Shown: piece by piece, positions 2,825 to 33,440 of the stretch
How positions within the stretch are numbered: position 1 is the first letter of the stretch
How the letters are laid out: each line of letters opens with the position of its first letter
DNA from: Azolla caroliniana
Lineage: Eukaryota > Plantae > Polypodiophyta
Assembly (NCBI GenBank): GCA_043228905.1
Contig: JBHGNT010000021.1
Span: forward strand, 4,650,001-4,714,000
Direction of reading: 5' to 3'
DNA length: 64,000 bases
Notes under the pieces: generated by a model
Databases searched by the model: none
Seen by the model: the letters and a program-made list of their open reading frames with translations, nothing else
Told to the model about the DNA's origin: nothing
Made by a program: the position numbers and the translations under genes

Positions 2825-3511
2825 TGTCGCGTTGTTACGCGCGTGCGTGGAGAAGGGCGGAACCACGGGGGTCTTGGACTAAGGAGAAGGGGAGAAGGAA
2901 TAGGACTTCGGAATGGAGCTTAGCACAAGAAGAGAAAGAATGAACAAGAGGAAGATGGAGGCCAAATGCTCAACAATATATATTAGAACCGAAAACCGAT
3001 TACAAAATGGCGGCCGCGTAGGCCGCACCAAACGACTATGATAAACCCAAAACCCTAATCCGACGAAGAAGGAAAGAAACCCTAACTAAGGAACCCGAAA
3101 CCCTAAAACGAAATGGTATACCTCACTCACACTCAAAATAAGGCAACCCCCACAATGGTGCTCTTCCTCTCCCTTTATAGCACAAGGAGGGAAGGCCGTT
3201 ACATAAAGGTGCTACAAAATATCCCCCTTTCAATCAATGGGGATATTTCCCTTGATTTTAGGGGAGGTGGGAAGGATGGGTCTTAACTCCCACCTCTACA
3301 CGAACTACTATGTACCTATCTCTCTCTCTCACGTGGATGTGCGCGCAAAAGCACATCACCTTTACACTTTACAAATCCTAAGGTGCATTTCTAGCACCAC
3401 ACTTATCACTATCGACAAATAGAAATACAACATCTTGATGTGCAACGTTGCACATCGCGGGTTTGCTTACTTCGCTCGGTTTTCCGCCTATGGACGAAAA
3501 TCTTCACGACA
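2825..3511 (-). repeat. 3' LTR of element B (687 bp)
   Basis: Direct repeat of 7959-8645; TATA (tttatag on +) at ~3174; three AAACCCTAA telo-boxes. Confidence 0.95.
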
Positions 3512-6500: not shown

Positions 6501-7916
6501 ACCTTCTCTCATGTCGACGCCGTGGTCGCCCGCCTTGCCACCGCCACCGCCTTTCACCATAGGTCTTACGCGGGCACTCGGGCCGGCCGCCGTGATCTCT
6601 AGGAATGACGCGTGTAAGGTCGCGGGACCGCCGCTCGTCGATGTAATGTCCGTAGCTACCTCCGCTCGGACGTCGTTGTCCGTGGCTACCCCGCCTCCGT
6701 ATATGCAAGCATCGGTTATGCTTGCCGCCGCCTCTTCCGCGGTCTCCTTACCGTTGTCTCGGTTGCCCGCCTTGCCGCCACCACCGTTCTTCTCCCTCGG
6801 TCTCACGCGGGCGCTCGGGCCGGCCGCCGTGGTCTCTTGAACCGGTGCGTGGAAGGTTGCGGTACCGCCGCTTGTCTCCTCCGTACTCGATGATTCGGGC
6901 CACCGTGTCCCGAATCCGCCATGTCCGCTCGAATAGGCGATCGCCGCCTCACCGTCCCCGACCTCGTCCCCGGTCGTTCTTTTCCCCCATGTCGAGAGGG
7001 CGGTTCGCTCCGCACCCTCTCCCGTGGTACCGATGTACCATTCTCTTTCGGCCTCCGCATAGGCCCCGTCCTCCATGTGTGAGGAAGCTCCTTCCTCCGC
7101 GTCCTCCGATCCGCTCGGGCCCGACCCCGCAATAAGCCATTCTTCGGCTTCGATTTTCGCCATTACGAGCCCGCACGCCTCCCGTATTAGCGCTTGTAGG
7201 TCGAGCCCCTCCAAACCGGTTCGCGATGAGCTCTCGTCCGGCGGCATGGCGTAGTCGGTCGTCGCTCTCTCTTCTCCCCCGCTCGCGGGCCGTGTTGTGG
7301 CCGACCGCCTCGCCTCATGTTGCCGACACACCCATTCCACTTCGGGCCACTCCTCGGTGAGACCATGCGCCCCATAATCGTCTTGAAGCTCGAACATGAT
7401 GTCCGTCCTCTCCTCATGATGGACCGTCTCCAAAAATAGGAGGACTTTGTCCGCCCCCACCGATCTTCGTTCCCACTCCGAGAGTTGAGAGAAACGACGC
7501 TCGAACTCTCGGAATGCCTCTATTGCGCTCCGATGGCGCCTCGCCGACGCCACCCACCGATCGAACTCTCGCCGACCTCTTACCTCCGATTCCGCGCACT
7601 CGTATGCCTCCATTAGAGCCCCTTCAAAGGACTCCCACGATTCGTGAGCTTCTTGGAGCTCCTTGACCTCCTCGTACTTTGATGCGGCCGCCGCTCGACG
7701 AAAGAACTCTAGCCTCGTCGCCTCGTCCACGCCCATCCTCGTCATTTCCGCATCGTAGGCTCTCAAAAATTTTGGGACCTCCTTCCCATCGAACCGGCCG
7801 ACTAGACGGACCACCCTTTCGACCGCTTGTTGAGCCGCCTCTCGCCTCGCCCTCTTCCGTCCGGCGTCCATCAAGATCTTTGTCATCATTTCCTCGAAGT
7901 CGAAGCCTTCCTCCAT
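3504..7916 (-). CDS. gag: 1470-aa ORF: gag-like N-terminal ~200 aa followed by a long acidic Gly/Ala/Thr/Glu-rich repetitive region
   Basis: The N-terminus (VGRFDGKEVPKFLRAY...WESFEGAL...FERRFSQL...DKVLLF...GLTEEW) matches gag remnants at 48190-48765 and 54344-54880. The ORF starts just after the PBS and stops inside the 3' LTR. Confidence 0.75.
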   Translation of the reverse strand: MEEGFDFEEMMTKILMDAGRKRARREAAQQAVERVVRLVGRFDGKEVPKFLRAYDAEMTRMGVDEATRLEFFRRAAAASKYEEVKELQEAHESWESFEGALMEAYECAESEVRGRREFDRWVASARRHRSAIEAFREFERRFSQLSEWERRSVGADKVLLFLETVHHEERTDIMFELQDDYGAHGLTEEWPEVEWVCRQHEARRSATTRPASGGEERATTDYAMPPDESSSRTGLEGLDLQALIREACGLVMAKIEAEEWLIAGSGPSGSEDAEEGASSHMEDGAYAEAEREWYIGTTGEGAERTALSTWGKRTTGDEVGDGEAAIAYSSGHGGFGTRWPESSSTEETSGGTATFHAPVQETTAAGPSARVRPREKNGGGGKAGNRDNGKETAEEAAASITDACIYGGGVATDNDVRAEVATDITSTSGGPATLHASFLEITAAGPSARVRPMVKGGGGGKAGDHGVDMREGAEQATLSSRGKRTAMDEADIYGAMDATSRVGGSFGTRLHETFYEDFASILEACEMEEEEETSVGVATFHTPALEASAVGPSAGTRPRATDGGGGKADNRNEDETGEEEAAASILDACETEDGVATDDDVRMEVATDERSGGVATFHTPALEASAVGPSAGTRPRATDGGGGKADNRNEDETGEEEAAASILDACETEDGVATDDDVRMEVATDERSGGVATFHTPVLETPAPGPRAGERPRVTDGGGGKGGNRNDDDMGEGAERATLSSCGEWTAKDEAGDYKAESATSKVGGRFGARRPKTSSGEEASGGAATFHTPALEASAVGPSAGTRPRTTGGGGGKAGKQNDAENGEEEVVASILEAYGIGDGGAADNDVRTKAATETTSGGAGSLPTPILEAPMAGPSAGIRLSATGGDGGKAGNGNEKEDWSGRRQDPLTPGPETSAVALECQRETGEMGGDREKVRPGESAYEDEYAGPGMGVYGGSDGEDRSGNEERVGNRPDRNTARKRKRVRAGEPGPNRRKPARPIGRLRLRLRLRWEPVSARWRLTGHDDHGSGEKRKQTRPSIPTQETTAVADQHKTGETAGGGEESEAGAYEVTGTDIRYEIVDGWVQDGEPASERATATKEEKTDTEVGSTAEERDEMHAIRPMEGQDTSMPTKEPHRATEDDGRITPSRGEYEEEGGDDKTWHDAREDWWEEVAYGEAKTGGHEDKAREGSSTPAIETPAVGASADVRPRVADGGGEGTKATTDEGTERGIREVAENEDVCAQKNEHDITKDVCGRADQEGQEGVPPSETEVGEERYLSERVREEERNAKRAMRPHEGQATSTGTMVCSTAREHGKHGKGGIRRATGEIGRASGGYTRRTKEEQPGRQRRSGGPIGEEGAGIGNGGPDVDGGSKNHDGRGGSGGGNDSANVVKCGGSDGADGSRPFGGDGGPEGDGGSCGRGGLARSGRQSRASPRGCQGLGWPPWPKISRFVPLLAHTGGCAVRWGRMS
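5820..6310 (-). repeat. 231-bp (77-aa) near-perfect tandem duplication within the element B ORF, plus diverged copies between ~4250 and 6870
   Basis: The peptide ATFHTPALEASAVGPSAGTRPRATDGGGGKA... is repeated; + strand ORFs 5832..6053 and 6063..6284 are identical. Confidence 0.9.
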
Positions 7917-7936
7917 CTCTTTCTCCCTTGCCGCCT

Positions 7937-7954
7937 TTCACGTCGGGTTCACCA
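7937..7954 (-). promoter_or_regulatory. Primer-binding site complementary to the 3' end of tRNA-Trp
   Basis: The - strand reads TGGTGAACCCGACGTGAA, 4 nt after the LTR; plant tRNA-Trp ends TTCACGTCGGGTTCACCA. Confidence 0.85.
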
Positions 7955-7958
7955 AAGA

Positions 7959-8645
7959 TGTCGCGTTGTTACGCGCGTGCGTGGAGAAGGGCGGAACCAC
8001 GGGGGTCTTGGACTAAGGAGAAGGGGAGAAGGAATAGGACTTCGGAATGGAGCTTAGCACAAGAAGAGAAAGAATGAACAAGAGGAAGATGGAGGCCAAA
8101 TGCTCAACAATATATATTAGAACCGAAAACCGATTACAAAATGGCGGCCGCGTAGGCCGCACCAAACGACTATGATAAACCCAAAACCCTAATCCGACGA
8201 AGAAGGAAAGAAACCCTAACTAAGGAACCCGAAACCCTAAAACGAAATGGTATACCTCACTCACACTCAAAATAAGGCAACCCCCACAATGGTGCTCTTC
8301 CTCTCCCTTTATAGCACAAGGAGGGAAGGCCGTTACATAAAGGTGCTACAAAATATCCCCCTTTCAATCAATGGGGATATTTCCCTTGATTTTAGGGGAG
8401 GTGGGAAGGATGGGTCTTAACTCCCACCTCTACACGAACTACTATGTACCTATCTCTCTCTCTCACGTGGATGTGCGCGCAAAAGCACATCACCTTTACA
8501 CTTTACAAATCCTAAGGTGCATTTCTAGCACCACACTTATCACTATCGACAAATAGAAATACAACATCTTGATGTGCAACGTTGCACATCGCGGGTTTGC
8601 TTACTTCGCTCGGTTTTCCGCCTATGGACGAAAATCTTCACGACA
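7959..8645 (-). repeat. 5' LTR of element B (687 bp)
   Basis: Direct repeat of 2825-3511; followed by the PBS on the - strand. Confidence 0.95.
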
Positions 8646-10734
8646 ACGTACCACCTCGCGGAACTCTACGGGACATGGTTAGCAGTGCCGGTGGCCGGAA
8701 AGCGGATCAAAGCATTCAAAAAGCGGTTCGAAGACGAGCCGGAGTCTACGAGCCGGAGCGACAACGACGATCAGTTCGGGTCCGACGGAGAATCGGAGAG
8801 CAACGAGTGAGGCCGGGTTTCTTCGATATCTACCCATCTCTGGCGCATACCGGTGGATGCGCGGTTTGGTGGGGGTGGATGTCGTGAAGAAAACTGGCCA
8901 TAGGCGGAATCGGAGAGAAAGCGCATAAACCGGCCCTTACACTGATGGACGCGTGACTTGGTATTTTGTACACGAATCGGTGGAGATAAATACTAAGCCG
9001 CACACATTTAGTAGGGGCGGTGTTACCTCGTACGAGATGTACGGAGAGTCAAGTGTGATGAGTGAGGGTCGAATGTTATCCTGATGTTGTGTATGTGTAG
9101 GGGGTATAAATGTAGTTGTGAGTCTATACGTATGTGAACACATGCACACGTGTGTGCACGTGGATGGATACGAGGAGGTATGAGTGACTGTCCAATATGA
9201 ATGCTCAATGGGGCTTACACCCCTATGTATCTACCCCCTTTTGTACTATTTAACCTCTTATGGGGAATGAATGAAATATGAATAACCATTTCTCTCTCAA
9301 TCTCTCTCTCTCTCTCATCATCTCTCTCTCTCTTCCCTCTCCTTAACGTTGAACCCCCTTGGGAGGGGGGTGGAGCCATTCTAGGCACCACCCCCCACCC
9401 CACAATGCTTCTCAATGCACATGATCTCTCTAACCATCAATCCCATACTCTCCATCATCATCATAACCACCATGTCTATCTTTATCATGATTATCATCGT
9501 CCTTAACCCTGACCCTAAAATCATATAACACCTTTTGGCGACCACTAAGGCGACCCCCCTTTGGAGACGGAGTCCAAGAATGATACGCGGCGATGCAAGA
9601 AAAGTGACAAATGATGGCGATGATGTGCAAGAATTGACAATATGTACAAGTGAGTGAGAAATTGAAGATTGACAATGTATTCATCACAAAACGAGGAATC
9701 GATGAATCGACAAAGAAGTGTTCAACATCCCTAATCCATGTTTAGTTATAAGCAGAGACAAATATATCCTCTGATGTGTGTTAAAGTAGAGACAAATTTG
9801 TCAACAGTTTACAAGTTAAAGCACAAATGTGTCTCCTCATTATCACCATTTCAATCATCATCATCCTCATATCCACCTAGATCATTCTTAACGAAGAGGG
9901 AGAAGATGATGATCATGATGAAGGCGAATATGAACATGAAATGTTGCACGTGGTTCAGGCAATTATGCTTGGTTGACAAAGACAGTGAAGGACGAAGAAA
10001 TAAACCCACAACCAAATAGAGATGTCAATTGAAGGGCCCGAAAGAAAGTAATGGTCGTACGGCCAGAAGGACCGAATAGAGCCGAAGACAAAAACGGTTA
10101 GACACAACCGAACCACGGCCAAAACGGAGGCCGGAAGAATGCCCGGATAGTGATGATTGAATAGAGCGGCCATGCAACTGGAGGCTGGCCGGACAGGGCT
10201 GGTGATGACGAGAAAGGCGTTAGGAATGGTCACCACCAACCGACAACAGCCGGAGCGGAGCGGTCGGAATGGTCGGATAACGGCTGAAGAGCGGCTGGAA
10301 TGGCCGAACAACGGCTAAAGAGTAGCCAGGCAACAGTCAGAACGGTTGGAGTGGCCGGATAGTGGCTGAACAACAGCCGGAGTAGCCGGACAAAGGAAAA
10401 AAACAGTCGGACAAGCGGCCAGACGAGAAGACACGGCGTCAGAGCGACAGCGGCCAGACCAATGGCGGGACAACAGACAATAGTGACAACCAGAACAGCC
10501 ATGAACAACGGCCGAAACAACAACAAAGACACTGCTAAACCATGGAGGTGTCAGAACCAAGGATAAAAGATAGAGTGATGGAAGAAGGATAGAGAAGAAT
10601 GGATGTAGAAGATAGAGAAAGAAAGAGAATGGATACAAGATATGTAATGAGAGCTAAAGACTGGTGTTGATTCGAATTGATTTGAGAATACATGTATGCG
10701 CTTATTTATAGGTTCCTATAGAATAGCTTAGAGA

Positions 10735-10800
10735 TTTCTAGAATGTTCTAGAATGTTCTAGACCTAGAATGCTCTAGGACATTGTAGAACATTCTAGAAT
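10735..10800. promoter_or_regulatory. Heat-shock-element array in U3 of the element D LTR (also 16353-16418)
   Basis: TTCtaGAAtgTTCtaGAAtgTTC (5 alternating nGAAn units) and GAAcaTTCtaGAA, just upstream of TATAAATA (- strand, 10703-10710). Confidence 0.7.
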
Positions 10801-10869
10801 AATCTAGAGTTTTTACAATAATCAATGTAATACAAGAAGTAGCTTTTATTGTTTCATATAACAATAAGC

Positions 10870-10935
10870 TATCTTAATGGTTGAGGTTTTCAAGTATGAA
10901 TTACAAGGTTCGAGGTTCAAGTCCGGGTGACGCCA
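10870..10935 (+). promoter_or_regulatory. tRNA-like Pol III cassette (A box + B box) in the element D LTR (also 16488-16553)
   Basis: A box TATCTTAATGG at 10870 and B box GGTTCAAGTCC at 10914 (44-nt offset, as in tRNA); ends ...GACGCCA. Confidence 0.7.
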
Positions 10936-10941
10936 TAATGG

Positions 10942-13900
10942 TCATGTGTTCATGACACTATCCCTCCTTCGAGAACGCCGAGTGGAAGTCGGCGTTAACA
11001 TTGTTGGGCCGGGCTTGTTTGGATAGTGACGATGGAAGTCGTTGACCAGAGCTTCAACATTACAAACGTTATCGATGGGTTCCCAAGTGCGATCACTCGG
11101 AGGATAACCAAGCCAATCAACTAGATAATAAAGCTTATTGCGCACAATATTAGAATCGAGAATAGCAACTACCTCGTATTCGGGGCCGTCCACAAGTTGT
11201 ACAGAAGGCGGTGGTGGCACGACACGATCAGGAATTAAAGAGGTGTGGCAAGGTTCCAAAAGAGAGCTATGAAAGACAGGGTGAAGCCGCATATGTGCAG
11301 GAAGGTTAAGACGAAATGTTGCATCATTAATCTGCGTCGTGATGACAAAAGGACCTAAGCGTTGATAGTCAAGCTTAGCACACGGTCGGGTAGTCTTGAT
11401 GTGACGACGAAGCAACCATACACGGTCACCAACCTTAAACGGAGACTTAAGACGATTTCGATCGGCATTGGTCTTATGGTGTGCTTGCGCTTTCTGAAGA
11501 TGTGACGATAACTCGAACTGGATTTGTTGTAGTCGGTGGAGGTGATGCGCTGCACTAGGGTTTCGTGACACCTCAGGAAGATCCAGTATACACCATCGAG
11601 GGTGGTTGCCGGTGTAGGCAAAGAAAGGTGTAACTTTGGTAGAAGAGTGGACCGTGTTGTTGTATGCAAACTCGGCAAGATGTAAAATTTTATTCCAATC
11701 ATCTTGTTGATAACTAATGAAACATCGAAGATATTGCTCGAGCGTTTGATTTGTGCGCTCTGTTTGTCCGTCAGTTTGTGGATGATAAGCCGAAGAGAGT
11801 TTGCAAGAGATTTTGAGGCCTGCCCATAGGTGCTTCCAAAAGTGTGAGATAAATTGAGGACCTCGATCGCTAATAATATCATTCGGGAGACCATGATGGC
11901 GAAACACTTCACGCATAATGAGATCTGCAGTTTCTTCACTATTGGTGGTCTTTACACATGGTACAAAATGTGCCATCTTGGTGAACCGATCCACTACTGT
12001 TAAAATAGTATCAAAGCCTTTGGAAGGTGGCAGATCCGTAATGAAATCCATAGAAATAGACTGCCATGGCTTGTTGGGAGGGGGTAATGGTTGTAGTAAG
12101 CCATAAGGGTGATGCCGGGGTATTTTGGCGCGACAGCAGGTGTCACAAGTGCGAACATAATCTTTGACAAATTTTTGCAAGTGAGGCCACCAAAACGAAC
12201 GTTTCACCAGCTCAATGGTCTTGGAAATACCAAAATGTCCAGTCATGGGGGCATCATGACAATGTTCCAACACTTGAAGTCGGGGTGATCCGTCAGGGAC
12301 GTAAAGGAGACTCTTGTAGAAGAGTAAACCATTTTGCCACTTGAAGTCCTGATAATGTTGAGATGACCCTGGCAATGTGGAGCAAGATGGACGACTTGAA
12401 CCACAGTGGGCTAAGACATCCTTAGCAAAATCATCTGAATGAAGTTGTTGCCGAATACTGTCAAGAAGGGTAGAATCAAGTGGTGTGGCATAAATTGTTG
12501 TTACCTGTAGCTTTGATGGCCCGAGGAGAGTTTGCTTTTGATTGTCAAAGGCCGGATCTCCAGGTCGAAGTGCTAGATACGAACGCTGAGACAGAGCATC
12601 TGCTTTCCCTTGTTGTTTTCCGGGCGAAAAATGATCTTGAAATTGAAACGCGTTAGAAATTGGGCCCACCGAGCTTGTCGTCTATTTAATACTCGAGCTG
12701 TTTGAAAATATGTGAGATTTTTGTGATCACTATAAATGATAATCTGATGAGGTGATCCTTCTAGAAAATGACGCCATTGCTCGAATGAGTCGACCACAGC
12801 TAGTAACTCCTTGTCATGCACCTCATAGTTTATCTCCGAAACAGTAAACTTTCTCGAGTGAAACGCGACTGGATGTATCTGCCCGTCCTCGCCTGGTTGC
12901 GATAGGATACTCCCCAATGCAAAGTCTGATGCATCCACCTCAATAGTAAAAGGCTTTTCAGGATCAATATGTGCTAGGATGGGTGCTGATGTGAATGCCT
13001 CTTTCAGCTTTGTAAAAGCCTTGTCCGCTTCGATACTCCAAAAAAATGCTTGATTTTTCTTGGTGAGTTGACTAAGGGGCAACACAATGCTTGAATAATT
13101 ATGTATGAATTTGCAATAGAAGTTCGCAAATCCAAGGAAACACTGGACATCCTGAACTGAGCATGGGGGTTTCCATTCCAATATTGTTTGGACTTTTGCC
13201 GGGTCCATGAAAACACCCTGGGATGAAATAGTGTATCCCAAAAATTCGACTTGTTTGCAATCAAAACTGCATTTCTCAAGTTTGGCGTAAAGACCATACT
13301 TCCTTAGGCGTTCAAGTACTTGCCGCACATGTATATCATGCTCCCCCTGTGTTTTAGAGTAAATCAATAGATCATCTAGGTAGATGATTAGAAAAATATC
13401 CAAGAAATCCCAGAAGATGTCATTTGCCATATGTTGGAATACGACAGGTGCATTTGTGAGCCCGAAAGGCATGATTGTATACTTGAAATGACCATACCGA
13501 GTACGAAATGTTGTTTTCCACTCATCTCCCGGCCGAATTCGAACAAGATTATATGCACCCCTTAGATCAATTTTGGTAAAATGCTTTGCCCCACCAATGC
13601 GTTCTAAGAGATTGGAGATTAAAGGTAAAGCATACCTATTCCTTATGGTGACTTTATTTAAGCCTCGATAGTCCACGACCAAGTGAAGGGAGCCGTCCTT
13701 TTTCTTCACAAAAAAGATAGGAGCACCAGCTGGAGACTTTGAATGTCGAATAAACCCACGTGCAAGATTTTCCTCGATGTATTCTCGAAGACCCTCAAGC
13801 TCAGTGGGTGATAAATTGTAAATCGGACCCCACGGAGGCTCTTTTCCTGGTTGGAGATCAATAGGACAGTCGTACGGCCGATGCTTTGGAAGAACACTAG

Positions 13901-14570
13901 CTTTGACTTTGTCGAAAACATCAGCATAGTCTTGATATTTTTGGGGAATTTGGATGTTCGAATTCCCTTGAGTGACACTAGAAGGTGTCACTGATACTAC
14001 AAATAAGAAAAGGTCCTCCTTGCCTCCCACTTGGTGCAATTGTTGCAATGTGATGGCTGAAATTTGATGAGAAGGATATGGTGCATCGGTAGAACTATAT
14101 ACTTTGGGAGGATAATCCCGAGTTCGATCCTTGACAATGATATTTTCTGCTAAAGGGCACCTAATTTCTCGCTTCCTCCAATCGATTCTAGGGTTATGTA
14201 GCTCGAACCATGGCAAACCGAGGACAATTGGATGCTCAGGACTACGGATTATATTAAAGGAAACTACACATCCTAAATCACCCAAGAGTATGTGTATTGG
14301 CTCAGACTCTTCAAATATCTTCCCGGAAGCTATGGGGCGTCCATCAATCACTACTACGGAAACTGGACAAGGAAGTGTATGCAAGGATATTTGGTGTTTT
14401 TGGGCAAAATCTCTATCCATGAAACAAGAATTGGCTCCAGTATCTAAGAGGGCTTGGACTTGAAGTTGAAAACTGGGTGTCCTAACTTGTACTAGGGCTG
14501 AGAAGACTCTACTAACATGCTTGGAAGAAATGGAACCCACACTAGGTTGTACATATCTAGGGTTGTCCAA
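10942..14570 (-). pseudogene. pol: pol of element D (PR-RT-RH-INT-chromodomain) with one frameshift near 12630
   Basis: ALLDTGA, YLDD, DASD, HHCC, DRG, GPF and EYEVVAILDS...YLVDWLGY...TWEP. Confidence 0.95.
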
Positions 14571-14596
14571 CCAAATGGCTCCTATTTTGGCCGGAC

Positions 14597-15782
14597 TTAT
14601 TCGTTTGACTCCTCTTCTAATTGGCTTAGGACTTCAAATTTATTGGACAAGGGTGGATTATTCATAATATTAGATTCACTAACTACTTCTAAAATGTTGG
14701 ACTCATTTTTATTGTCATAGTGAATTTGATTTACCTGACGTCTCGGCCTACGGGAGCAATGAATGGCTATATGTCTTGGACCTCCACAATATAAGCACAG
14801 ATGGTTTGCTCGACAACGTTGCTTCTCTTTGTCTGACAACGGTCCTCGTCTTTGAGTCATATCGATCTCCATGGGTGTAGGACTATCCATTGGGACTGGA
14901 CTACGTGTTTGCCTTGGAGTTGGAGCAGGGCTATACATTTGCCTTGGGGATGATTGCGCCGTTACTGATGCATAAGTTGGTGTGAATCTAGATCTTGTTA
15001 TTTGTTGTTGTCGCTCACATCGACGCTCAAAGAGGCGATTATCACACAGTATTGCTCGACTAATAGCTTCTGTAAGTGACCTTGGATCCTCGGGGAAGGT
15101 AAGAAGTAAGTCTTTGACATCACTACGAAGGCCTGAACGGAATTGCTCCATTAGGGCTTGTTCATCCCAAGGAATATCGCTTGCGATGAGACGGAAATTG
15201 GCAGCATATGTTGAAGCTGGTTGATCACCTTGACGAAGTGTACAAATCTTGTTGATAGCTGTTCTCGCCCCATCAGTATCTCCGAAACAAGCCTTAAATT
15301 CCTTGATAAATTCCTCGAAATTATTCAATAGAGGAGAATTGGTCTCTAGCAATGGAGCAAACCACGACAACGCTATGCCAGTCAATAAAGTGCCCACTAG
15401 CCTGACTCATGATGCATCTGTTGGATAACGTGCGGGATGCATTTGAATCACCAACCGTACTTGATTCAAAAAACCTCGGAAATGCGCCCTCGACCCATCA
15501 AATTTAGCTAGGAGGCTAATTTTGGGCTCCTTGATAAGTCCCTGACCTTCAACCCTTTGTTGTTGTAACACGACGATTGTCGACTCTAACTGTTGCACTC
15601 GTCGCGTGAACTCCTCTTGTTGTTGCTTCTCTATAGTAACCTTTTGTAGATCCCCAAGTAGACGTTGATTCTCTACTTCACGAGATGCGAACTTGGATTT
15701 AAGGTTCTCCATTTCTGCAACAAGGGTGAGATATTCTTATGAGTTAATTGCAGCCATGGTTTCAGGATGGTTACAAAGGAGG

Positions 15783-15821
<39 letters not shown>

Positions 15822-16080
15822 CCTGACCTTCAACCCTTTGTTGTTGTAAGTCCTTGATAAGTCCCTGACCTTCAACCCTTTGTTGTTGTAACACGACGAT
15901 TGTCGACTCTAACTGTTGCACTCGTCGCGTGAACTCCTCTTGTTGTTGCTTCTCTATAGTAACCTTTTGTAGATCCCCAAGTAGACGTTGATTCTCTACT
16001 TCACGAGATGCGAACTTGAATTTAAGGTTCTCCATTTCTGCAACAAGGGTGAGATATTCTTCTGAGTTAATTGCAGCCAT
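14597..16080 (-). pseudogene. gag: gag of element D; premature TGA at 15407 and 5' part duplicated in tandem
   Basis: EPKI...KFDG, LRQG..A..Y...F, PTPMEID and a CLYCGGPRHIAIHC zinc knuckle. Confidence 0.9.
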
Positions 16081-16105
16081 GGTTTCAGGATGGTTACAAA
16101 GGAGG

Positions 16106-16157
<52 letters not shown>

Positions 16158-18015
16158 GAATCAAACTGTCAGAACCAAGGATAAAAGATAGAGTGATGGA
16201 AGAAGGATAGAGAAGAATGGATGTAGAAGATAGAGAAAGAAAGAGAATGGATACAAGATATGTAATGAGAGCTAAAGACTGGTGTTGATTCGAATTGATT
16301 TGAGAATACGTGTATGCGCTTATTTATAGGTTCCTATAGAATAGCTTAGAGATTTCTAGAATGTTCTAGAATGTTCTAGACCTAGAATGCTCTAGGACAT
16401 TGTAGAACATTCTAGAATAATCTAGAGTTTTTACAATAATCAATGTAATACAAGAAGTAGCTTTTATTGTTTCATATAACAATAAGCTATCTTAATGGTT
16501 GAGGTTTTCAAGTATGAATTACAAGGTTCGAGGTTCAAGTCCGGGTGACGCCATAATGGTCATGTGTTCATGACAAGAGGTGACACACACATGAAGGAAA
16601 TAGGACATAACAGACAAAGAGGAAGATAGAAAGAAGAGAAAGATGAAGTACAAAGCAGAAAATGAGACAGAACAAAAGAAAACAAAAGGAAGAAAAAGAA
16701 CCAAAGAAGGAGGAAGACATGGCGGGAAACGACAAGAAGAGCAGCAGAAACTAAGAAGAAAGAGAGATGGAATCGAAGACAAAAGCAAGGAAGAAGGAAA
16801 AAGAAGAGGAAGAAACCGCAAGAAAATACATTGATGAAGAAGAAGAAACAAAAGATAAACAGAAGACAGGGAAGATGAAGAAGCAAATGAAATAACGTGG
16901 ATAGAAAGGAAAACGAGGGAAAAAGAAAGAAGAATAGAAACGGACAAGAAGAAAGAAAAAGTAAACCTGGTAGCGGGAAAGAAGAAAACGGAGAAGAGGA
17001 AGCAAAGAATGATATCAGAGACAGGAAAAAAAAGAAGAAGAAGAGAGAACCATAGGAATTTCGAAACTACTTTCGAAAAAAAGAAAAACCTAAGGGCATT
17101 GTTGGAATTATAAAAACATGAGGGTACATGATACAATTTTCAAAATCCAAGGGCATTGTCATTGGTTTAGAAAATTTCAGGCTACAATACCTAAATTTAA
17201 AAACTTATCCACCTAAAGAAATGGACGTGCTCGACCATGACAACCCACACAAAAATTAAAGGAAGAACACACATACATACAACATAATTTTGACGACCCG
17301 AATGATTTTACAAAGTTCGTAAGTCGACAGAACGAGAATGTTCGTGTCACGGAAGATTTGCTGACCGAAAAAGATGTTCGAGTCAAGCACTCCGATCGAG
17401 GGAGTCGATCAATGAAAGGACCGATGGAAGTTCCGGTCAAAGAAATACCATCATCAAGGCATGTGGGATCGACGTGCAAGGCACTTTCCCACGGGCGTGC
17501 CATATTGTGTTACCCCGTACGAGATGTACGGAGAGTCAAGTGTGATGAGCGAGGGTCGAATGTTATCCTGATGTTGTGTATGTGTAGGGGGTATAAATGT
17601 AGTTGTGAGTCTATACGTATGTGAACACATGCACACGTGTGTGCATGTGGATGGATACGAGGAGGTATGAGTGACTGTCCAGTATGAAGGCTCAATGGGG
17701 CTTACACCCCTATGTATCTACCCCCTCTTGTACTATTTAACCTCTTATGGGGAGTGAATGAAATATGAATAACCATTTCTCTCTCAATCTCTCTCTCTCT
17801 CATCATCTCTCTCTCTCTTCCCTCTCCTTAACGTTGAACCCCCTTGGGAGGGGGGTGGAGCCATTCTAGGCACCACCCCCCACCCCACAATGCTTCTCAA
17901 TGCACATGATCTCTCTCACCATCAATCCCATACTCTCCATCATCATCATAACCACCATGTCTATCTTTATCATGATTATTATCGTCCTTAACCCTGACCC
18001 TAAAATCATATAACA

Positions 18016-18491
18016 GGATTGTGTGTATCCCTGTCAGAGGGACAGGGAATAAACGGAATAGGACAAGAGAAAAGGGGTATCGCGCGCGAGGGAGGAGGGG
18101 GTGCTGCTGCAGATTTGGGTGCGAAGCCTCTCTCTTCTCCTCCGGCCGTCGTTCTCTGTGGGTGTCGGAAGTTCGCTACCTCTGCTTTGGGGACAGCCTC
18201 TGTGCTTCCAGCAGAGTCTCTCCTTTTCCCCCTTTTGTTTCTGGGAGTCTTGTGACTGTCGTCGGTGTGCGTGAGTAGGGTCCCCGTGTCGGGTCCGTCG
18301 CCGCCTTGTCGGTTGTAACCGTCGGAGTTTGTAATCTGTTGTCATTGTAATTAAGTGTTACGTTCTATATCTCTCCTTCTCGCTTCTACGTGGCTATGAA
18401 TCTCTTTCCCTGTCTCTGTCTCTCTCGCTCCTCGGTCCAAGACCCCTGTGGTCCCGCCCCTTTCTACACGTATGCGCGTAACAACGCGACA
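18016..18491 (+). repeat. Distal part of the element A 3' LTR (proximal part 8880-9020)
   Basis: Joined with 8880-9020 it reproduces the uninterrupted 616-bp copy at 24030-24645. Confidence 0.92.
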
Positions 18492-18495
18492 ACGT

Positions 18496-18889
18496 AAAAT
18501 GGATTACAAAGAGTAGGCTACAAAATGGTGTTGAACCAATTTAGGTTTGGGATGGGTGATAGATCCCTATTTATAAGTAATAGAGAACACTCTAGAATAT
18601 TCTAGGTTATCCTAGAATGTAGAGTAATCTAGAAGATCTATAGAGTATTCTAGAAGGTTCTAGTGGTATAGAACACTCTAGAATATTCTAGGTCACTCTA
18701 GAATGTAGAGTAATATAGAATATTCCTATGATATTAGATTTCATATTCTAGAAACTATACATATAAGAATATTGATACAATGGTTAAGGATTTGACATGT
18801 GTACAACAAGGTCGTTGGTTCAAATCCTTTCGAGTCATAATGTGACTATCAAGATCCTTTCGATGCATGATGTGAGTGTTGTCATGACA
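18496..18889 (-). repeat. Partial chromovirus-type LTR into which element A inserted (second copy 24650-25043)
   Basis: Ends CATGACA like the D and G LTRs; carries the GTTGAACCAATT self-priming motif, TATA, TCTAGA/HSE arrays and an A/B box at 18773/18817. Confidence 0.8.
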
Positions 18890-18894
18890 GACGG

Positions 18895-19544
18895 TGTCTC
18901 GGTTTTCAGCGGGTACGTGTAGGATCTTAGGCGGGACCGTGGGGGTCTTGGACTAGGGAGATGGATAGTGGAGTCCTTAAGCTTTGTAGGCTTCGGTCCG
19001 GAATCGGCTTCCGGCTCCAACGAATGTAGGGTTTAACAAAAGACAGTTCACTGCGAATATGGATCCGACTCAAATATGTTACAAGGGAGATAGATATACA
19101 CGAACATGAATATATATTATAAGAGTCTTACAACAAGACGGTTACATGCCCCGAATCCGGTGGCTATTACATATCAATAGGCTAATACAACAAGTTAAGA
19201 AAGGGAACCGGTGAAGGTGAGTCGAGTGGGCTACCGGGACCGCGACATCCACCATTGGTCACGCCCCGAAGACGGTGGAGTGTTCCCATGCCACTTCGTC
19301 CTCCCTTCTCGAATCGGCTGCCACACGAAACGCTCTCCATCGAGGAGAGGAAACTGAATCACCAAGTGCTACTTCGTCCTCCCTTCTCGAATCGGCCGCC
19401 ACATGAAACGCTCTCCATCGAGGAGAGGAAACTGAATCACCAAGTGCTACTTCGTCCTCCCTTCTCGAATCGGCCACCACACGAAACACTCTCCATCGAG
19501 GAGAGGAAACTGAATCACCAAGTGCTACCACCGGAATGCCTAAA
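18895..19544 (-). repeat. Truncated copy of the Phygy-like solo LTR (complete copy 25049-26019) with a 78-bp x3 tandem expansion at 19291-19527
   Basis: Matches 25049-25521; the unit is single in the second copy. Confidence 0.85.
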
Positions 19545-19701
19545 CCGAATGGTCTAAAACCAAGGAGTGCGTGCTATGGTTCTCGACAAAACTATTGGAT
19601 GGAGGGTAAATACCATAAGAAAGGAAAGGAGAAATGTGAAGAGTAGAGTAGAGTACTGTGTGTGTGTGAGAGAGAGAGAATTGAGACAACTTATATTAAG
19701 G

Positions 19702-19757
19702 AAGGCCTTATTGCAAACTAGTTTTGCTCATACGAGCTCATCAGTGCAATAGGCCTT
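19702..19757 (-). ncRNA. Minimal type I hammerhead ribozyme (core GAAA decayed to AAAA)
   Basis: The - strand reads AGGCCTATTGCA-CTGATGA-GCTC gtat GAGC-AAAA-CTAG-TT-TGCAATAAGGCCT: stem I, core, stem II and palindromic CTAG stem III. Confidence 0.8.
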
Positions 19758-20084
19758 GTTTTTACAAAATAGAGATATATATATAGTGAAGATGGGGTAA
19801 GAGAGGGGGGGGGGGGGGGGGGGGTGATGAGTGCATATAATGAATGTGTGGTAGTCGAAGAGTGAGAGTAATGACATGTAGAGAGAGTGAGAGAGAGAGA
19901 GAGAGAGATTTAAATGTCTATCAAGGGTAGTTAAGGTGTATAAAAGGGTATGTTTTAAGGGGATGTGATGTAAGGTGAGTTGATATAATTGGGGTGATAA
20001 GGAATAATGAGGGTAATAAGGGGAGAGTATGTTAATGTATTCTAAGAGGGTACTAAAGGAGGATAAGGGGATGCTAGGGATAGA

Positions 20085-21935
20085 TTATGGGATAAGTAAG
20101 GGTGGTGAGGTGGGTGGGGATCTAGTAAATTTAGTTTGGACTAAAAGTGAGTGTAGGGTTTTAGATTTAGTCCAACAAACTAGAGGTTTGGGGATACTAC
20201 ATAGTTGGGGATCCTTCATAAAATCACTATATAGGTTAGTTAGAAAAGTTTCAATACCTAGTTTAGGGGTGTTATGGGTATATCTTAGTCTAAAGATGGT
20301 TAGGGTAAGAGAAGCTTTAGTTTTAGGCTTAAAAAGGAGTGATTGTCTAAGAGAATAAGGGTATTTCCTAAAGTTCCTAAGGATGAAATTGGGTGGGTAT
20401 CCTCTTTTGGTAAGCCTACGAAAAAATAAGTTTCTCATATTAGAATAGCCTAAAGGCGTGCTTTCTCTAATGAGGTATCTTTTGAGCTCGTTAGATATGA
20501 AGCTATGCTTTACTTGGAGAGGATGGTTAGATGAAAAAGGAAGGTATTGATAGGTATTAAGGGATTTTTGAAAGCAGTTAAAGGAGAATTTGTCATTAAG
20601 AAGGTTGATCCATATATCTAGAAAGGAAAGCCTAGTCGGAGAGGTTTGTATGGTGAGTCTAATAGAATTATTGGTAGTGTCACCATAGAATTTTAAGAAG
20701 TCTAAAAGTTGAGGTTTGGTGCCTGTCCATACTCCAAAGGCATCGTCTATATACCTAGTGAAGTAGAAGAGGTGGGGGGAAGGATGAGAATTTTCTAAGT
20801 GTGATAGGAAGAGACACGTGTATGCAACAGAGAAGTTGCTACCCATGGCAGTGCCCTTAATCTGTTGGTAGATTTGATTGTCAAACATTAGGAAATGATA
20901 TTCTAAGGTTAGGGCGCTAAGGTTATATATAAGATTAGTCTTATTTATTGAGAAATGAGGGGAGATAATATTCCTAAGGGCTTCGCGTCTTAATTTCGGT
21001 GGGATGCTAGGATAGAGGGACTCAATATCAAAGGTAAAAATGAAACTATTTGGGGGAGGGTTTAGATTTTCTAAGGTTTGGATGAGGGAGTGAGAATCTT
21101 TTAGATATTGCTTTTGAGTTAATAGGATAGGTAGGAGTTGATAGTGTAACCATTTCGATGTTTGTTCAAAGATGGATTTGTTATATGAACATATAGGTCT
21201 AAATCTGAAAGGTGTCTTATGAATTTTAGGGAGAAAGTAGATATTGGCTACTCTATAACCTTGGGGTGGTTTGTGGAGAATGTAGTTGGCTTCTAATATA
21301 GAGAGGGTTCCTAGATTATTTCTAACTATAGTATTTAATCAATCTAAGAGTTCTCCTAACGGAAAGTGGGTCATTAGTTTGTAAGTGGTGGTATTTGAGA
21401 GATGGGTTATAGCTTTAGTATAATATAGGTCTCTATCTAAGACACAAACTCCTATATTTTTATCGGCGAGTAAGATAAGGATTTTAGTATTTCTCTTAAG
21501 GCTATTGAGGGCTAAGACAAGGTGGTATGGGGGTTTAGCATACTTAATTTTAGTGTTTAGTAGTTGTTCTTGTAGGATACTATTGTATTTTTCAATAAGG
21601 GTTTCTAAGGGAAGGTATTTAGATGGAGGGTTCCAGGTGGGGTTAGGTAATTTGAAGGGATTAGGTGGGGTAGTATCACTATTTCTAAAGAAGTGTCTAA
21701 GGTGTAGTGATCTACTAAGGTTGGTATATTCTTTAAGGATGTTTTGAGGGGAGGGTGGGGGGGAAGGGGGGATGTATTTTAGTCCTAAGTTTAATAGTTG
21801 TGTTTCGTTTTTACTAAGTGTGTAAGTGGACAAGTTATGTAGACTAAGGCTAGTACGAGGGGTATAAGCTAAAGGTTTCCAAAATTTAGTCCTAGGTCTA
21901 TTCCTACGGGTTTTCTTAGAGGTAGGGTAAAACAT
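20085..21935 (-). pseudogene. Penelope-like reverse transcriptase (stop at 21339)
   Basis: NLSTYTLSKNETQLLNLGLKYIP, ADKN, LPKIHKTPFRFRPI, TFDIESLYPSIP, GTAMGS, RYIDD, FLD and the C-terminal HP...RGYP thumb. Confidence 0.9.
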
Positions 21936-22071
21936 GAATTTTTATTATTAGTATTCCCCAACCACATAAAAGTGTCAGGGGTTGAGGTTTGTCTATTGAG
22001 AAGGTAGAAGATTCGTTTTATAGGATGTATGGCGTGTCTAAAGTGTCGATTCACACGTTTAGCACGCCGTG

Positions 22072-23825
22072 TTAGACGTTTTTTGGTTGGGCTATGGGAG
22101 GGTTTGAGGAGGGGGTATGTGAATGATTTTGAGTATTATGGTGTCTATTATGAGGCCTATGATTTATGTGGGGATATGATGTAGTAATATTTTTTGGAGG
22201 GGGAGGGGTAGTGTTAACATTATTAAAAGGATAGGGTGTGGTATTAATTTTTGGAGGGGGGAGGGTATTATGTATTAAGAAAGAAGGGGGAGGGTTAATA
22301 GAGGAATTAGAGAAATATGGGGGAGGGATAATAGAGGAAGTATGGGGAAGGGTATTAAGTGAATTGGGTAAGTTAGGGGGAAGGGTATAAGTAAAATGCG
22401 GGGGAGGGGTATACGAAAAATTAGTGTAAATAGGTGGAGGGGTATATGTGTAATTTGAAGAAACGAAAGAGGGGGTATCTGTAAACGGGGGGGGGGAAAG
22501 AGTGTAAGGGGGGTATAGTTTGTGAGAATGCCTGATTAGAGAGAGCATGGGTTTGACTGTGAGGGGGGAAGATATGGGAATTAGGGTTTTGAAACCCTGT
22601 CACAATAGGTGGAGATGAAAGGAGAGGAGGTAGCATGGACGTCTGTCGGCTGCCATGTGCAGTCCCGGACAGAACGTCCGATGAAATAAAGGGGGTGGGG
22701 AATATACAATTGGGTATGAGATGGTTGTCAGAGACATATCCATACTCATGTGCGTAATGGGGTATGTGTACAGGGGGGAAATTATTGTGTGTCATAGGCG
22801 GGGTATGTTGTGGGAGGGGCATAGACAGTGGCGGCGGTAGTGGCGACTGCTTTGTAGGTTGCTGAGGGAAGCCGTAGTTGTAATGTTGCTGATGATGTAT
22901 GTTTGGTGGTTTATGCAGGTTTTGATGTGGATTACCGAAAGGAGGGGCATTGCTTGCCATAGGTGGATGTGGTTGGATAGAGGGAGCTGCTGCAGTGGAT
23001 ATATTATGGGAGTGGATTGGGTGTCGAAGCTCAAAGTTATTATGGTATGTGTAGGGATTAATAAATTGTACTATGGGGACATTAGAGCGGGTAAATGGGT
23101 TATGAGATTGAATCACCTCGTTTGTGGCTGTGTTATAGGTGTAGAGGATGCTACCAATTCGTTGTTGATGGTTGTTGGAGTTAATATGGGCACTAGACTG
23201 TTTATTATTGTTATTATTAGGGTTAGGGTTAGGGTTAGGGTTAGGGTTCGATCTGAAATTTAGATTCTTTTTTAGATTAGGGTCATTATTATTGTTAGTA
23301 TGGAAAGCTATTTTTTTGAAATTTTTAAGACCTATTTCTTCAGGAGTGATGTAGGATGGACTGTCATAAAAGACTTCATCGTTATCTTCTTCATCCTTGT
23401 CACTAAATACTTCATCATTATCTTCTTCATCCCTATCACTCATTGTAACATCTATTTCTCTAATGTTCACTGGTTTATCTAAATGATGAGGATCCTCATA
23501 GTCATTATTTGCTTGTAGGCTATTTCTTGATCTTGTGGCTGTTTTTTTTAAGGTTTCATCTATATTGTGGTTAACAACAAATTCATCACACGCACTAAGT
23601 ATTCTTAAAGCGAAATCCTCGAGCCAACTCTTCATAGTTTCTAAATATAACTCTGGGTCTATATGATTAGATACTGTATTAAGATGGGTAGGATCTTGTA
23701 ATATATCAGTAAAATGGCTGAGATCAGATCTAATCTTATTTGGAAAATCATCTATTAATTTAGTGTACGAGTGTACTAACATGTCTAAATGTTTAATATA
23801 GCTCCTTGTAAGGTCTCTATTATAT
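22072..23825 (-). pseudogene. PLE upstream ORF1-like region (helical N-terminal part, then Asn/Pro/His-rich); frameshift probably at the G-run ~22490
   Basis: ORFs 22421..23914 and 22072..22548 are co-oriented with the RT. The first ~29 codons of 22421..23914 are antisense gypsy sequence. Confidence 0.5.
23217..23246 (+). repeat. (TTAGGG)5 telomere-type repeat inside the PLE
   Basis: ttagggttagggttagggttagggttaggg; encodes NPNPNP on the - strand. Confidence 0.95.
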
Positions 23826-25521
23826 TGGTTAGCGGTGCCGGTGGCCGGAAAGCGGATCAAAGCGTTCAAACAGCGGTTCGAAGACGAGCCGGAGCTTGCG
23901 AGCCGGAGCGACAATGACGATCAGTTCGGGTCCGGCAGAGAATCGGAGAGCAACGAGTGAGGCCGGGTTTCTTCGATATCTACTCGTCTCTGGCGCATAC
24001 CGGTGGATGCGCGGTTTGGTGGGGGTGGATGTCGTGAAGAAAACCGGCCATAGGCGGAATCGGAGAGAAAGCGCATAAACCGGCCCTTACATTGATGGAC
24101 GCATGACTTGGTATTTTGTACACGAATCGGTGGAGATAAATACTAAGCCGCACGCATTTATTAAGGGGGGGATTGTGTGTATCCCTGTTAGAGGGACAGG
24201 GAATAAAGGGAATAGGACAAGAGAAAAGGGATATCGCGCGCGAGGGAGGAGGAGGTGCTGCTGCAGATTTGGGTGCGAAGCCTCTCTCTTCTCCTACGAC
24301 CGTCATTCTCTACAGGTGTCGGGAGTTCGCTACCTCTGCTTCGGGGACAGCCCGTGTGCTTCCAGCACAGTCTCTCCTTTTCCCCCTTTTGTTTTTGGGA
24401 ATCGTGTGACTGTCGTCGGTGTGCGTGAGTAGGGTCCCCATGTCGGGTCCGTCGCCGCCTTGTCGGTTGTAACCGTCGGAGTTTGTAATCTCTTGTCATT
24501 GTCATTAAGTGTTACATTCTATATCTCTCCTTCTCGCTTCTACGTGTCTGTGAATCTCTTTCCCTGTCTCTGTCTCTCTCGCTCCTCGGTCCAAGACCCC
24601 AGTGGTCCCGCCCCTTTCTACACGTACGCGCGTAACAACGCGACAACGTAAAATGGATTACAAAGAGTAGGCTACAAAATGGCGTTGAACCAATTTAGGT
24701 TTGGGATGGGTGATAGATGCCTATTTATAAGTAATAGAGAACACTCTAGAATATTCTAGGTTATCCTAGAATGTAGAGTAATCTAGAAGATCTATAGAGT
24801 ATTCTAGAAGGTTCTAGTGGTTTAGAACACTCTAGAATATTCTAGGTCACTCTAGAATGTAGAGTAATATAGAATATTCCTATGATATTAGATTTCATAT
24901 TCTAGAGACTATACATATAAGAATATTAATACAATGGTTAAGGATTTGACATGTGTACAACAAGGTCGTGGGTTCAAATCCTTTCGAGTCATAATGTGAC
25001 TGTCAAGATCCTTTCGATGCATGATGTGAGTGTTGTCATGACAGACGGTGTCTCGGTTTTCAGCGGGACAGCGGGGGTCTTGGACTAGGGAGGTGGATAG
25101 TGGAGTCCTTAAGCTTTGTAGGTTTCGGTTCGGAATCGGCTTCCAGCTCCAACGAATGTAGGGTTTCACAAAAGACAGTTCACTGCGAATATGGATCCGA
25201 CTCAAATATGTTACAAGGGAGATAGATATACACGAACATGAATATATATTATAAGAGTCTTACAACAAGACGGTTACATGCCCCGAATCCGGTGGCTATT
25301 ACATATCAATAGGCTAATACAACAAGTTAAGAAAGGGAACCGGTGAAGGTGAGTCGAGTGGGCTACTGGGACCGCGACATCCACCATTTTGTCACGCCCC
25401 GGAGACGGTGGAGTGTTCCCATGCCACTTCTTCCTCCCTTCTCGAATCGGCCGCCACACGAAACGCTCTCCATCGAGGAGAGGAAACTGAATCAGCAAGT
25501 GTTGCCACCGGAATGCGTAAA
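23826..25521 (+). repeat. ~1.7-kb direct duplicate of 8676-9020 + 18016-19544 (A 3' end and LTR, chromovirus LTR part, solo LTR part)
   Basis: Same three-element junction series, roughly 95% identical by eye; lacks insertion C. Confidence 0.92.
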
Positions 25522-26019
25522 GCCGCCATTGTAGGAACCCTCAAACCAAACCAAACTCTCACACGAAGAAGAGAGAGTGACACCCGAAACCCTAACCGCA
25601 TAAACCCTAACTCACACAAACTCTCACAAGAAGAAGAACCTAAACGGAATACTATCCTCCACTCAAAAAGAATGAACCAAATCCACGAGAAAATGAAGAA
25701 GAACAAAGTAAAACCCTAAAATGAAGTAGAGTGAAGATCAAAGTAGAAACCCTAAGGGAACAAGAATAAGATGAAGAGGAAGAACACTACCAAACCCTAG
25801 ACATAAGTGGTATACCCTCCTAACTCAAAATGGGCAACCCCTTTACAAAGGGCGCTCCCTTCCTTTTATAGAACAAGGAGAGGGATGCATAACAATGTGG
25901 GATAAATACTCCCCCTTATTCTATACACCGATCTCCTATTATACATGTGCACATGTTGCACACCACCGACTTGACCATTCCTCCCTAGTTTCACACTATA
26001 GTCGGCAATCTTCACAACA
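25049..26019 (-). mobile_element. Phygy-like solo LTR (971 bp) with TSD ACGG
   Basis: TGTCTCGG...TCTTCACAACA; ACGG at 25045-25048 and 26020-26023; blocks shared with the B LTR (GGGGGTCTTGGACTA, TGGTATACC...GGCAACCCC); telo-boxes. Confidence 0.88.
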
Positions 26020-26023
26020 ACGG

Positions 26024-32300: not shown

Positions 32301-33440
32301 AAACACATGTCCTACATTTCGTGGGTCTTTAATCATTGGCTCTGTGGCTACTTCTTTGATTGCCCTTTCACTATCCCCTGCAAGTGGAGCAGCAATAGGA
32401 CGAACCTTCGTCTCCACTGTTTTGTACTTTTTTAAGACATGTGCCTCATGATCCTTTCGAGCAACTTCTTCAATGACCTCGTACATCTTGATCGAATGGA
32501 CAGGAACTTGAAATTTGTTGTTGTCCTCCAAACTTAATTCTTCAAACATATCTTGAATTTCTTTATCATCATCTATTAATCAAGAACATTTAAAATACTT
32601 GGAAGCATTTTATATTTTATTATTATCTACTTTTAGCATAAAAGTAGCACCACTAGATGAGATTGTACAAGGAATATCTTTATTTACATTATTATTTATG
32701 GGGTTTTCTTTCATGTCCGAGCTATCACAACCCCTACCTGTAAAAGCCCTATCTAAAAATCCTGGGAAAATTCTTCATCCACCTCCCGAATTGGATGTTC
32801 CCTCAAGCATTCTTTATTTCTTTTGTGGTTGGGCTTCACAGTTAAGAATTGGACTGTCTTTCTTCCATCTTGACTCTTGATTCTCGCGAAAGCCAAACCA
32901 TCATCAATCATCTTTGTTTCTATCCTGACTGCGGTGATGTAAGGCTGACCAAGGATGACGGGGTAGGTTGATCGATCCTGCACAAAGAAAGTTTGATTCA
33001 CTGACACATCACCAATTGTTACCTTCACATTGGGGCATGCTCCGAATAGATCCTCCGTAGTCTCTGTGGCAGCTCTTATCTTCCACCCATGATTCTTGTC
33101 GATCGGCCACCATCCTTGAGAGTAAAATTCCGACGACATCATGTTAATCTCGGATCCATGATTGATCAAAGCAAGACATGGAATTTGTTGCTCCCCAATT
33201 TTTGCAGGTGCCTCCTTTGTTGCTCGAGCCCAATGGTCCCTTGTATAGTGACTCCTATCCTCTTCATGAACCCCAACATCATTTCTGTTTTTTACATTTG
33301 CAGCGTTAATGGTACCACCATACAAATCTCGAAGTGTTGCTGCACACCCTCCCGTAACTTCCTCCATCACCTGTCTCTTTCTTCTAATAATATCTATGAT
33401 AACTTCATGAAATTCTTTCTTTGCTATGACCAACACTTCT
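29350..33440 (-). pseudogene. pol: PR-RT-RH-INT of element F (several stops); no chromodomain
   Basis: ALINHGSEIN (protease), FLDD, TDCLP and ADRGE; clearly homologous to the element A pol. Confidence 0.92.

Follow-up and report, generated by a model that had tools for sequence, protein, structure and literature searches.

How does a retroelement with no detectable endonuclease enter the interior of a chromosome, and why should such an insertion be framed by two long copies of its target? Endonuclease-deficient Penelope-like elements (PLEs) are described as generally restricted to chromosome termini and as needing other sources of 3′ ends (PMC8557442). We examine these questions in a 64-kb stretch of Azolla caroliniana DNA (the window; G000:C21:4650001-4714000, from an assembly of 523 Mb with the telomere repeat TTTAGGG), which consists almost wholly of nested long terminal repeat (LTR) elements. 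At positions 19545-23825, on the minus strand, the window holds an endonuclease-less PLE that is 5′-truncated inside its first open reading frame (ORF1), and this PLE lies between two direct copies of a 1.7-kb segment.

A 1.7-kb duplication of target DNA around the PLE

The right copy is uninterrupted (23826-25521) and comprises the 3′ internal end of LTR element A, the A LTR (24031-24645), a B-family LTR (24647-25043) and the start of an E-family LTR. The left copy is divided by a later LTR element, X (9021-18015, minus strand; LTRs at 9021-9530 and 17508-18015), into a first part with the 3′ internal end of A and the start of its 3′ LTR (8676-9020) and a second part with the remaining A LTR, the B LTR and the start of the E LTR, where a 78-bp unit is present three times (18016-19544). 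By self-BLAST, the first part matches 23826-24170 at 94.8% identity and the second matches 24170-25521. When the parts are joined, a global alignment of the left and right copies is identical at 1629 of 1695 aligned positions (96%; Kimura two-parameter distance, K2P, of 0.040), the left copy being longer by 156 bp at the threefold 78-bp unit and by another 22 bp.

On their outer sides, both copies pass into native sequence. The upstream context of element A (8646-8675, with loose-end reads) resumes at 2824 and below once the LTR element Z (2825-8645) is removed, and native A sequence continues across 8676 in 6/6 other A copies fetched. Downstream, the E LTR (about 25049-26022) runs on through 25522-26022, and native E LTR sequence continues across 25521 in all five E copies examined. 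The coordinates are base-exact: native E reads ...GGAATGCCTAAAG, and the left copy therefore ends at 19544. The segment joins pieces of three LTR families, and native sequence borders it at either outer edge; we therefore identify it as duplicated target DNA, local to this site and arranged in the geometry of a target duplication. Among the best 40 of 3,782 candidates, the full A/B/E composite was found only here. We rejected a pseudo-LTR or composite LTR as the source of the repeat, since both outer contexts are native target and the segment flanks none of seven other copies of this PLE subfamily. An earlier sequence-only reading of this DNA had claimed both the duplication geometry and the target origin of the repeat; the former is borne out by BLAST, global alignment, native context on both sides and base-exact coordinates, and the latter by the absence of this LTR-element DNA from the seven other copies.

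The K2P distances arrange these parts into an age series, in which the LTR pair of A (0.063-0.065) precedes the duplicate copies (0.040), followed by the LTR pairs of X (0.018), of a younger Ty3/gypsy chromovirus nested in X (element Y, 10549-16575; 0.0025) and of Z (0). Within the A LTR part the duplicate copies differ by 0.054, hence their margin from the A pair is modest. The distances between the PLE and its C8 and C18 relatives (0.037 and 0.042) are about equal to that between the duplicate copies. This order of ages fits the break patching proposed below.

The PLE copy is unique in the genome (the next best match is 94-96%) and has no pseudo-LTR, partial tandem or inverted 5′ arm of its own. 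The C18 copy runs 305 bp further at the 5′ end, and the window copy is also short of about 8-10 nt at its 3′ end. On the minus strand it retains a Pro/Asn-rich remnant of ORF1 (22421-23825), a remnant of ORF2, the PLE reverse transcriptase (20085-21941, with a stop at 21339; RVT_1, E 1e-4), and a minimal hammerhead-ribozyme-like motif (19695-19758; HH9 model, E 0.012, 25.8 bits vs a 52-bit gathering score; z -4.3). The hammerhead core GAAA reads AAAA in this copy, and the motif is likely inactive. A TTAGGG run at 23217-23248 was considered as a telomere relic and rejected, as it encodes (NP)n in ORF1. The inner ends of the two target copies coincide exactly with the PLE ends, and the microhomology at both joints is short and imperfect. 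At the 5′ joint (23826-23832), the target TGGTTAG agrees with the native PLE continuation at six of seven bases in the upstream C18 copy and at five of seven in the second C18 copy; at the 3′ joint, one base overlaps exactly and 3/4 match.

An intact sister family encodes an 850-codon ORF1 and a 668-codon reverse transcriptase (ORF2), the latter with RVT_1 as its only domain. RVT_1 matches in both the window remnant and the intact sister protein of 668 aa mark the reverse transcriptase as PLE-type; the named proteins closest to it belong to Cryptomeria (40%) and Selaginella (37%), and near relatives include Ginkgo-labelled records. No GIY-YIG domain was detected in the intact sister ORF1 or ORF2 among profile matches up to E 1, in agreement with the sequence-only reading, which had called the element endonuclease-less. 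The relatives share its precomputed domain set, 4 of the 120 listed also carrying GIY-YIG, and a genome-wide search with PF01541 yielded one match among nine candidates, a single copy.

Scars at other PLE loci

A hammerhead pattern matched the genome at 147 sites, 100 of which are listed, while a control pattern matched at none; the sites are spread through chromosome interiors. We surveyed 78 ten-kb regions at listed sites and 2 at reverse transcriptase hits, extending 11 of them to 20-30 kb and leaving out already fetched sites and three tandem clusters. Two loci are copies of others, so that 78 independent loci remain. A duplication was counted as clean when one of its limits abuts the 3′ joint and the other the 5′ joint, either immediately or with filler in between.

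Clean duplications at both joints were found at 14/78 loci (about 18%), with a median of 369 bp and identities of 92.5-100%; their sizes are 40, 119, 127, 148, 229, 286, 349, 389, 437, 441, 590, 1,249, 3,046 and 3,134 bp. In addition, a young sister array at C22 carries a 3,826-bp flanking duplication, 99.97% identical, that spans a copia LTR/flank junction and has a 10-bp overlap with one mismatch at its 5′ joint. The idea that other copies would also have long duplicated flanks thus holds in the wider survey and at C22, but not in the window's own subfamily (0/7). The proportion of 14/78 is a lower bound, as longer or disrupted duplications would be missed in regions of this size. Five unscorable loci in satellite or tandem arrays (L113, L120, L124, L145 and L152) were kept in the denominator. 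Two partial cases (L122, about 2.9 kb by its homologues, and L105) stand outside the 14. We excluded flanking repeats that do not abut the joints (C8, L096, L106, L119, L139, L140, L148 and L098), which are probably LTR pairs, and redrawing the boundaries at about 20 loci to account for tandem read-through and inverted arms gave no new clean duplication.

At eight loci (seven of the 14 and the partial L122), the duplication is confirmed by comparison with copies of the target repeat that stand uninterrupted elsewhere. By chance, about 0.1 loci would be expected, given 26 PLE-free adjacent duplications in 805,476 bp of the same flanks (a probability of landing on a duplication junction of ~0.0013 per site). 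The overlaps at the 3′ joints are 0-12 nt long (median about 4). The feature is real and recurrent in this genome.

Most scored insertions have no duplication, and many have lost target DNA. Comparison with uninterrupted homologues revealed target deletions of about 11-53 bp (L091, L094, L096, L119, L133, L138, L139 and C6) and of 0.2-1.3 kb (L101, L128, L140 and L169), sizes that include the microhomology overlaps; most of the remaining loci have no informative homologue. Ordinary short target-site duplications (TSDs; under about 40 bp) show no excess in 60 loci over shuffled pairs, as measured by the longest shared word across the joints, and two longer TSD-like matches are explained by a simple repeat and by a site scored as a deletion. 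No common target motif is evident in the printed joints.

A third kind of scar consists of telomeric repeats. Filler of (TTTAGGG)n occurs at the joints of three loci (L103, L129 and L098), as compared to 3/16,600 random points. At L098 the filler has six repeats. At L129 (G000:C10 near 7,759,276), the PLE sits at a nearly blunt cut in copia sequence, between two short TTTAGGG tracts that face inward (5458-5487 and after 6273, sense orientation); both broken ends had likely been extended by telomerase by the time the PLE bridged them, and the element is here joined to telomeric repeats at an internal break. At the 5′ joint of L103, the order is the duplication, 22 nt of TTTAGGG repeats and then the PLE. 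Telomerase requires a free 3′ end; therefore, the 5′ side of L103 is likely a genuine broken end. A fourth candidate, L132, was rejected because its repeats are the coding repeats of an inverted arm.

At the left end of C7, a young PLE (L057, 3715-7991) runs in the sense orientation into the terminal TTTAGGG array and is cut inside ORF1. Its reversed orientation led us to reject it as a canonical telomere attachment; a break inside the element was likely healed by telomere addition.

Other structures accompany the family. Pseudo-LTRs, partial tandems or inverted 5′ arms are present in the C22 array (a 636-bp pseudo-LTR), C18, L143 and L161, and inverted PLE arms of 72 bp to 3.3 kb stand on the 5′ side of the insertions at L092, L132, L154 and L161. 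The fullest copy of the window's subfamily (G000:C18, about 7,970,800-7,995,400; L051 and L034-L036) combines a pseudo-LTR with several nested insertions and an internal duplication of about 4.5 kb, and additional 5′ stubs lie inside a 531-bp satellite. Hammerhead clusters on G000:C9, C11, C13, C14, C19 and C20, in which sites are spaced by 1.8 or 2.2 kb, suggest tandem arrays of short PLE units that are probably non-autonomous. Two pairs of PLE loci lie within larger segmental duplications about 35-40 kb apart, L143/L144 on C14 and L166/L167 on C20; on C14, the two loci are 100% identical for 7.4 kb or more, in copies without PLE joints. At L116, 211 bp of non-PLE filler (2870-3080, sense) separate the duplication from the PLE, and part of this filler may resemble a 5S-rRNA-derived sequence.

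Proposed break patching and its alternatives

We now consider how these scars could arise. The PLE reverse transcriptase probably patched a break at which 1.7 kb of sequence was shared by the two free 3′ ends, and this overlap was duplicated in the process; we infer every step from the scars. First, a host-caused break would form. Either the sister chromatid would serve as template for the extension of one end, which would then be released, or two distant nicks would be unwound; in both cases the two ends would carry the segment. The plus-strand 3′ end at 19544 would anneal by a few bases to the PLE RNA, in its 3′ region and downstream of the hammerhead, and prime complementary DNA (cDNA) synthesis. 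The cDNA would halt inside ORF1 and be joined to the other end at 23826 by about 7 nt of microhomology, after which fill-in would fix both copies. If the ends were resected instead of extended, the same process would yield a small deletion, and prior action of telomerase at an end would account for (TTTAGGG)n filler.

Under this proposal, the PLE likely bridges and marks repaired breaks, and it contributes little duplicated DNA. The clean cases amount to 10,584 bp, or about 16 kb when C22 and the window are included, in 523 Mb. A more general claim, which we advance tentatively and rate at a little under an even chance, is that the endonuclease-less PLEs of land plants reach the interiors of chromosomes only by serving as RNA-templated patches for broken DNA; they would compete with telomerase for 3′ ends, sometimes build on fresh telomerase repeats, and make aborted repair heritable as kilobase duplications.

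Several observations weigh against break patching. None of the seven other copies of the window's subfamily (C4, C6, C8, C9, C15, C16 and C18) has a long flanking duplication within 12 kb, and the microhomology at the window's 3′ joint is weak. The identity of the duplications correlates weakly with that of their PLEs (Spearman 0.46, p 0.054, n=18, two points entered manually). The public runs provide short-read contigs only; none of those listed bridges 19544/19545 or 23825/23826, an absence that proves nothing, and no empty allele was seen among contigs that are uninformative at the joints. A divergent endonuclease working in trans would be missed by the PF01541 search. Finally, the scars cannot separate sister-chromatid extension from staggered nicks, nor do they name the maker of the break.

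The alternative that survives best, though we consider it unlikely, makes the element an active generator of duplications: its reverse transcriptase would prime at a stalled fork or nick, and the cDNA itself would restart synthesis after invading either the sister chromatid or an intact site 1.7 kb upstream, at a lesion that would have healed unduplicated without the PLE. The same geometry is expected, an L1 insertion bridging sister chromatids has been proposed for a tumour tandem duplication (PMC7058536), and PLE-free adjacent duplications reached at most 427 bp in a first background scan vs up to 3.8 kb for PLE-bridged ones. However, a PLE-free tandem duplication of 1,423 bp exists in the same DNA, the copies of over 7 kb at L143/L144 have no PLE joints, and a class of deletions exists alongside the duplications. 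Moreover, telomeric filler could be added on the 5′ side of L103 only if a free 3′ end was present, which points to a second broken end. This speaks against the switch back to an intact site 1.7 kb upstream that the sequence-only reading had supposed, and its description of the element as a generator of segmental duplications was overstated, given the total of about 16 kb and the commonness of PLE-free duplications in the same DNA.

A further explanation, which we regard as improbable, invokes an endonuclease supplied in trans by a long interspersed nuclear element (LINE) or a divergent PLE, which would nick twice at distant positions and yield true, very long TSDs. The spread of the family through chromosome interiors is compatible with such an enzyme, and the duplications of the Dualen-4b LINE, with a median of 900 bp, have been tentatively ascribed to its two endonucleases (PMC9977147). 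But no multi-copy GIY-YIG is present in the genome (the search did not extend to apurinic, APE, and restriction-like, RLE, nucleases), there is no class of short TSDs, the printed joints reveal no shared target motif, and clean nicking is not expected to give deletions or telomeric fillers.

It is very improbable that a tandem duplication arose first and the PLE landed later on its junction, or that the element carried the segment as a mobile composite with a pseudo-LTR or long LTR. PLEs do form pseudo-LTRs, as the C18 and C22 copies have done; the segment, however, is LTR-element DNA missing from 7/7 other copies, its A/B/E composite was found only here and the chance of landing on a junction is small at each site, so that this explanation is largely refuted already. 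Least probable of all is an assembly artefact that joined two haplotypes through the PLE: the PLE joints are unbridged by the listed contigs, but the two copies are set apart by 4% divergence, private indels and a nested insertion of 9 kb, the PLE copy is unique, 15 further loci show this geometry at 92-100% identity, and error-free contigs in runs X2 and X3, from two studies of which one may be the assembly's own sample, span the private 22-bp deletion of the right copy and its B/E junction.

Known systems and the surrounding LTR elements

We compare the proposed break patching to systems with similar parts. The endonuclease-deficient PLEs of the Athena and Coprina groups and of Selaginella moellendorffii (PMC8557442, PMC12477314) resemble the Azolla element in their GIY-YIG-less PLE reverse transcriptase, separate ORF1, hammerhead near the 3′ end, pseudo-LTRs, tandem arrays and 5′ truncation. 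They are described as generally terminal, whereas most of the listed sites in Azolla are interstitial and accompanied by long duplications or deletions. Their attachment is described as proceeding via telomeric repeats beside the hammerhead, to G-rich telomere overhangs (PMC8557442, PMC12477314). In contrast, the window's subfamily has no C-rich telomeric repeat beside or after its hammerhead, the C22 sister family has a degenerate one (CCCTAA(A) units near the hammerhead), and the one chromosome-end copy examined here (C7) runs into TTTAGGG in the opposite orientation.

Variable flanking duplications with a median of 900 bp surround the Dualen-4b_cRei LINE of Chlamydomonas (PMC9977147), a likeness to the variable, very long duplications in Azolla. 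Dualen, however, has two endonucleases and duplications at more than half of its insertions, while the Azolla PLE has none detected and duplications at about 18%, plus deletions and telomeric filler. In tumours, L1 cDNA joins a second 3′ end of a pre-existing break, with 1-5 bp of microhomology or short filler, and a deletion or duplication results (PMC7058536), as proposed here; those events are an aberrant, somatic minority and mostly primed by the L1 endonuclease, unlike the apparently normal, inherited and nuclease-less mode of the Azolla PLE. In BRCA1-deficient C. elegans, polymerase theta joins tandem duplications of mostly 10-20 kb (PMC7368036). As at the Azolla loci, duplications in the kilobase range occur there together with small deletions, and the junctions hold microhomology or inserts; they contain no retroelement.

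The ribosomal DNA retroelement R9 also makes an unusually long target duplication, which is reportedly of fixed length and site-specific. Its TSD is 126 bp long (as cited in PMC9977147), whereas the length of the duplications at Azolla PLEs varies about 100-fold. Long duplications beside a retroelement are known from Dualen and R9, and bridged breaks from L1; their counterpart in endonuclease-deficient PLEs is new as far as the literature searched. That literature held no report of such duplications for these elements; the primary papers of 2007 and 2017 may mention them.

The Azolla loci bear on how endonuclease-less PLEs enter chromosome interiors, since at least 147 motif sites are available here with scorable scars. 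These scars, which fall into long duplications, small deletions and telomeric fillers but include no ordinary TSDs, make break patching testable and connect the PLE reverse transcriptase with internal breaks being healed in a telomerase-like way. Genome size is affected little. If the proposal is true, a telomerase-related retroelement would serve as a routine bridge in break repair and provide a dated record of germline breaks.

The LTR elements around the PLE have features of their own. The 5′ LTR of element A lies 3.2 kb ahead of the window start, and ACGT flanks A on both outer sides. The same 4-bp TSD is common to the related elements A and Z (2/2; 2821-2824, 8646-8649, 24646-24649 and G000:C21 near 4,646,776), a hint that insertion may favour certain sequences. 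Element X lacks a clean TSD (GGCGG on the left and GGATT on the right, though the right copy of the segment keeps both flanks contiguous); it is placed in a G run, and its two inner LTR borders resemble primer-binding sites. The B-family LTR at 24647-25043 is solitary: its flanks show no matching TSD, and the 13 kb inspected upstream contain no partner LTR. Element Z is very young, its LTRs being 100% identical, and is likely non-autonomous: its 1,477-codon open frame has no Pfam match, and it contains 231-bp tandem repeats. PLE-free tandem duplications occur within these LTR elements at 15528-16142 (323-bp unit), 33260-33898 (212 bp) and 5731-6311 (231 bp).

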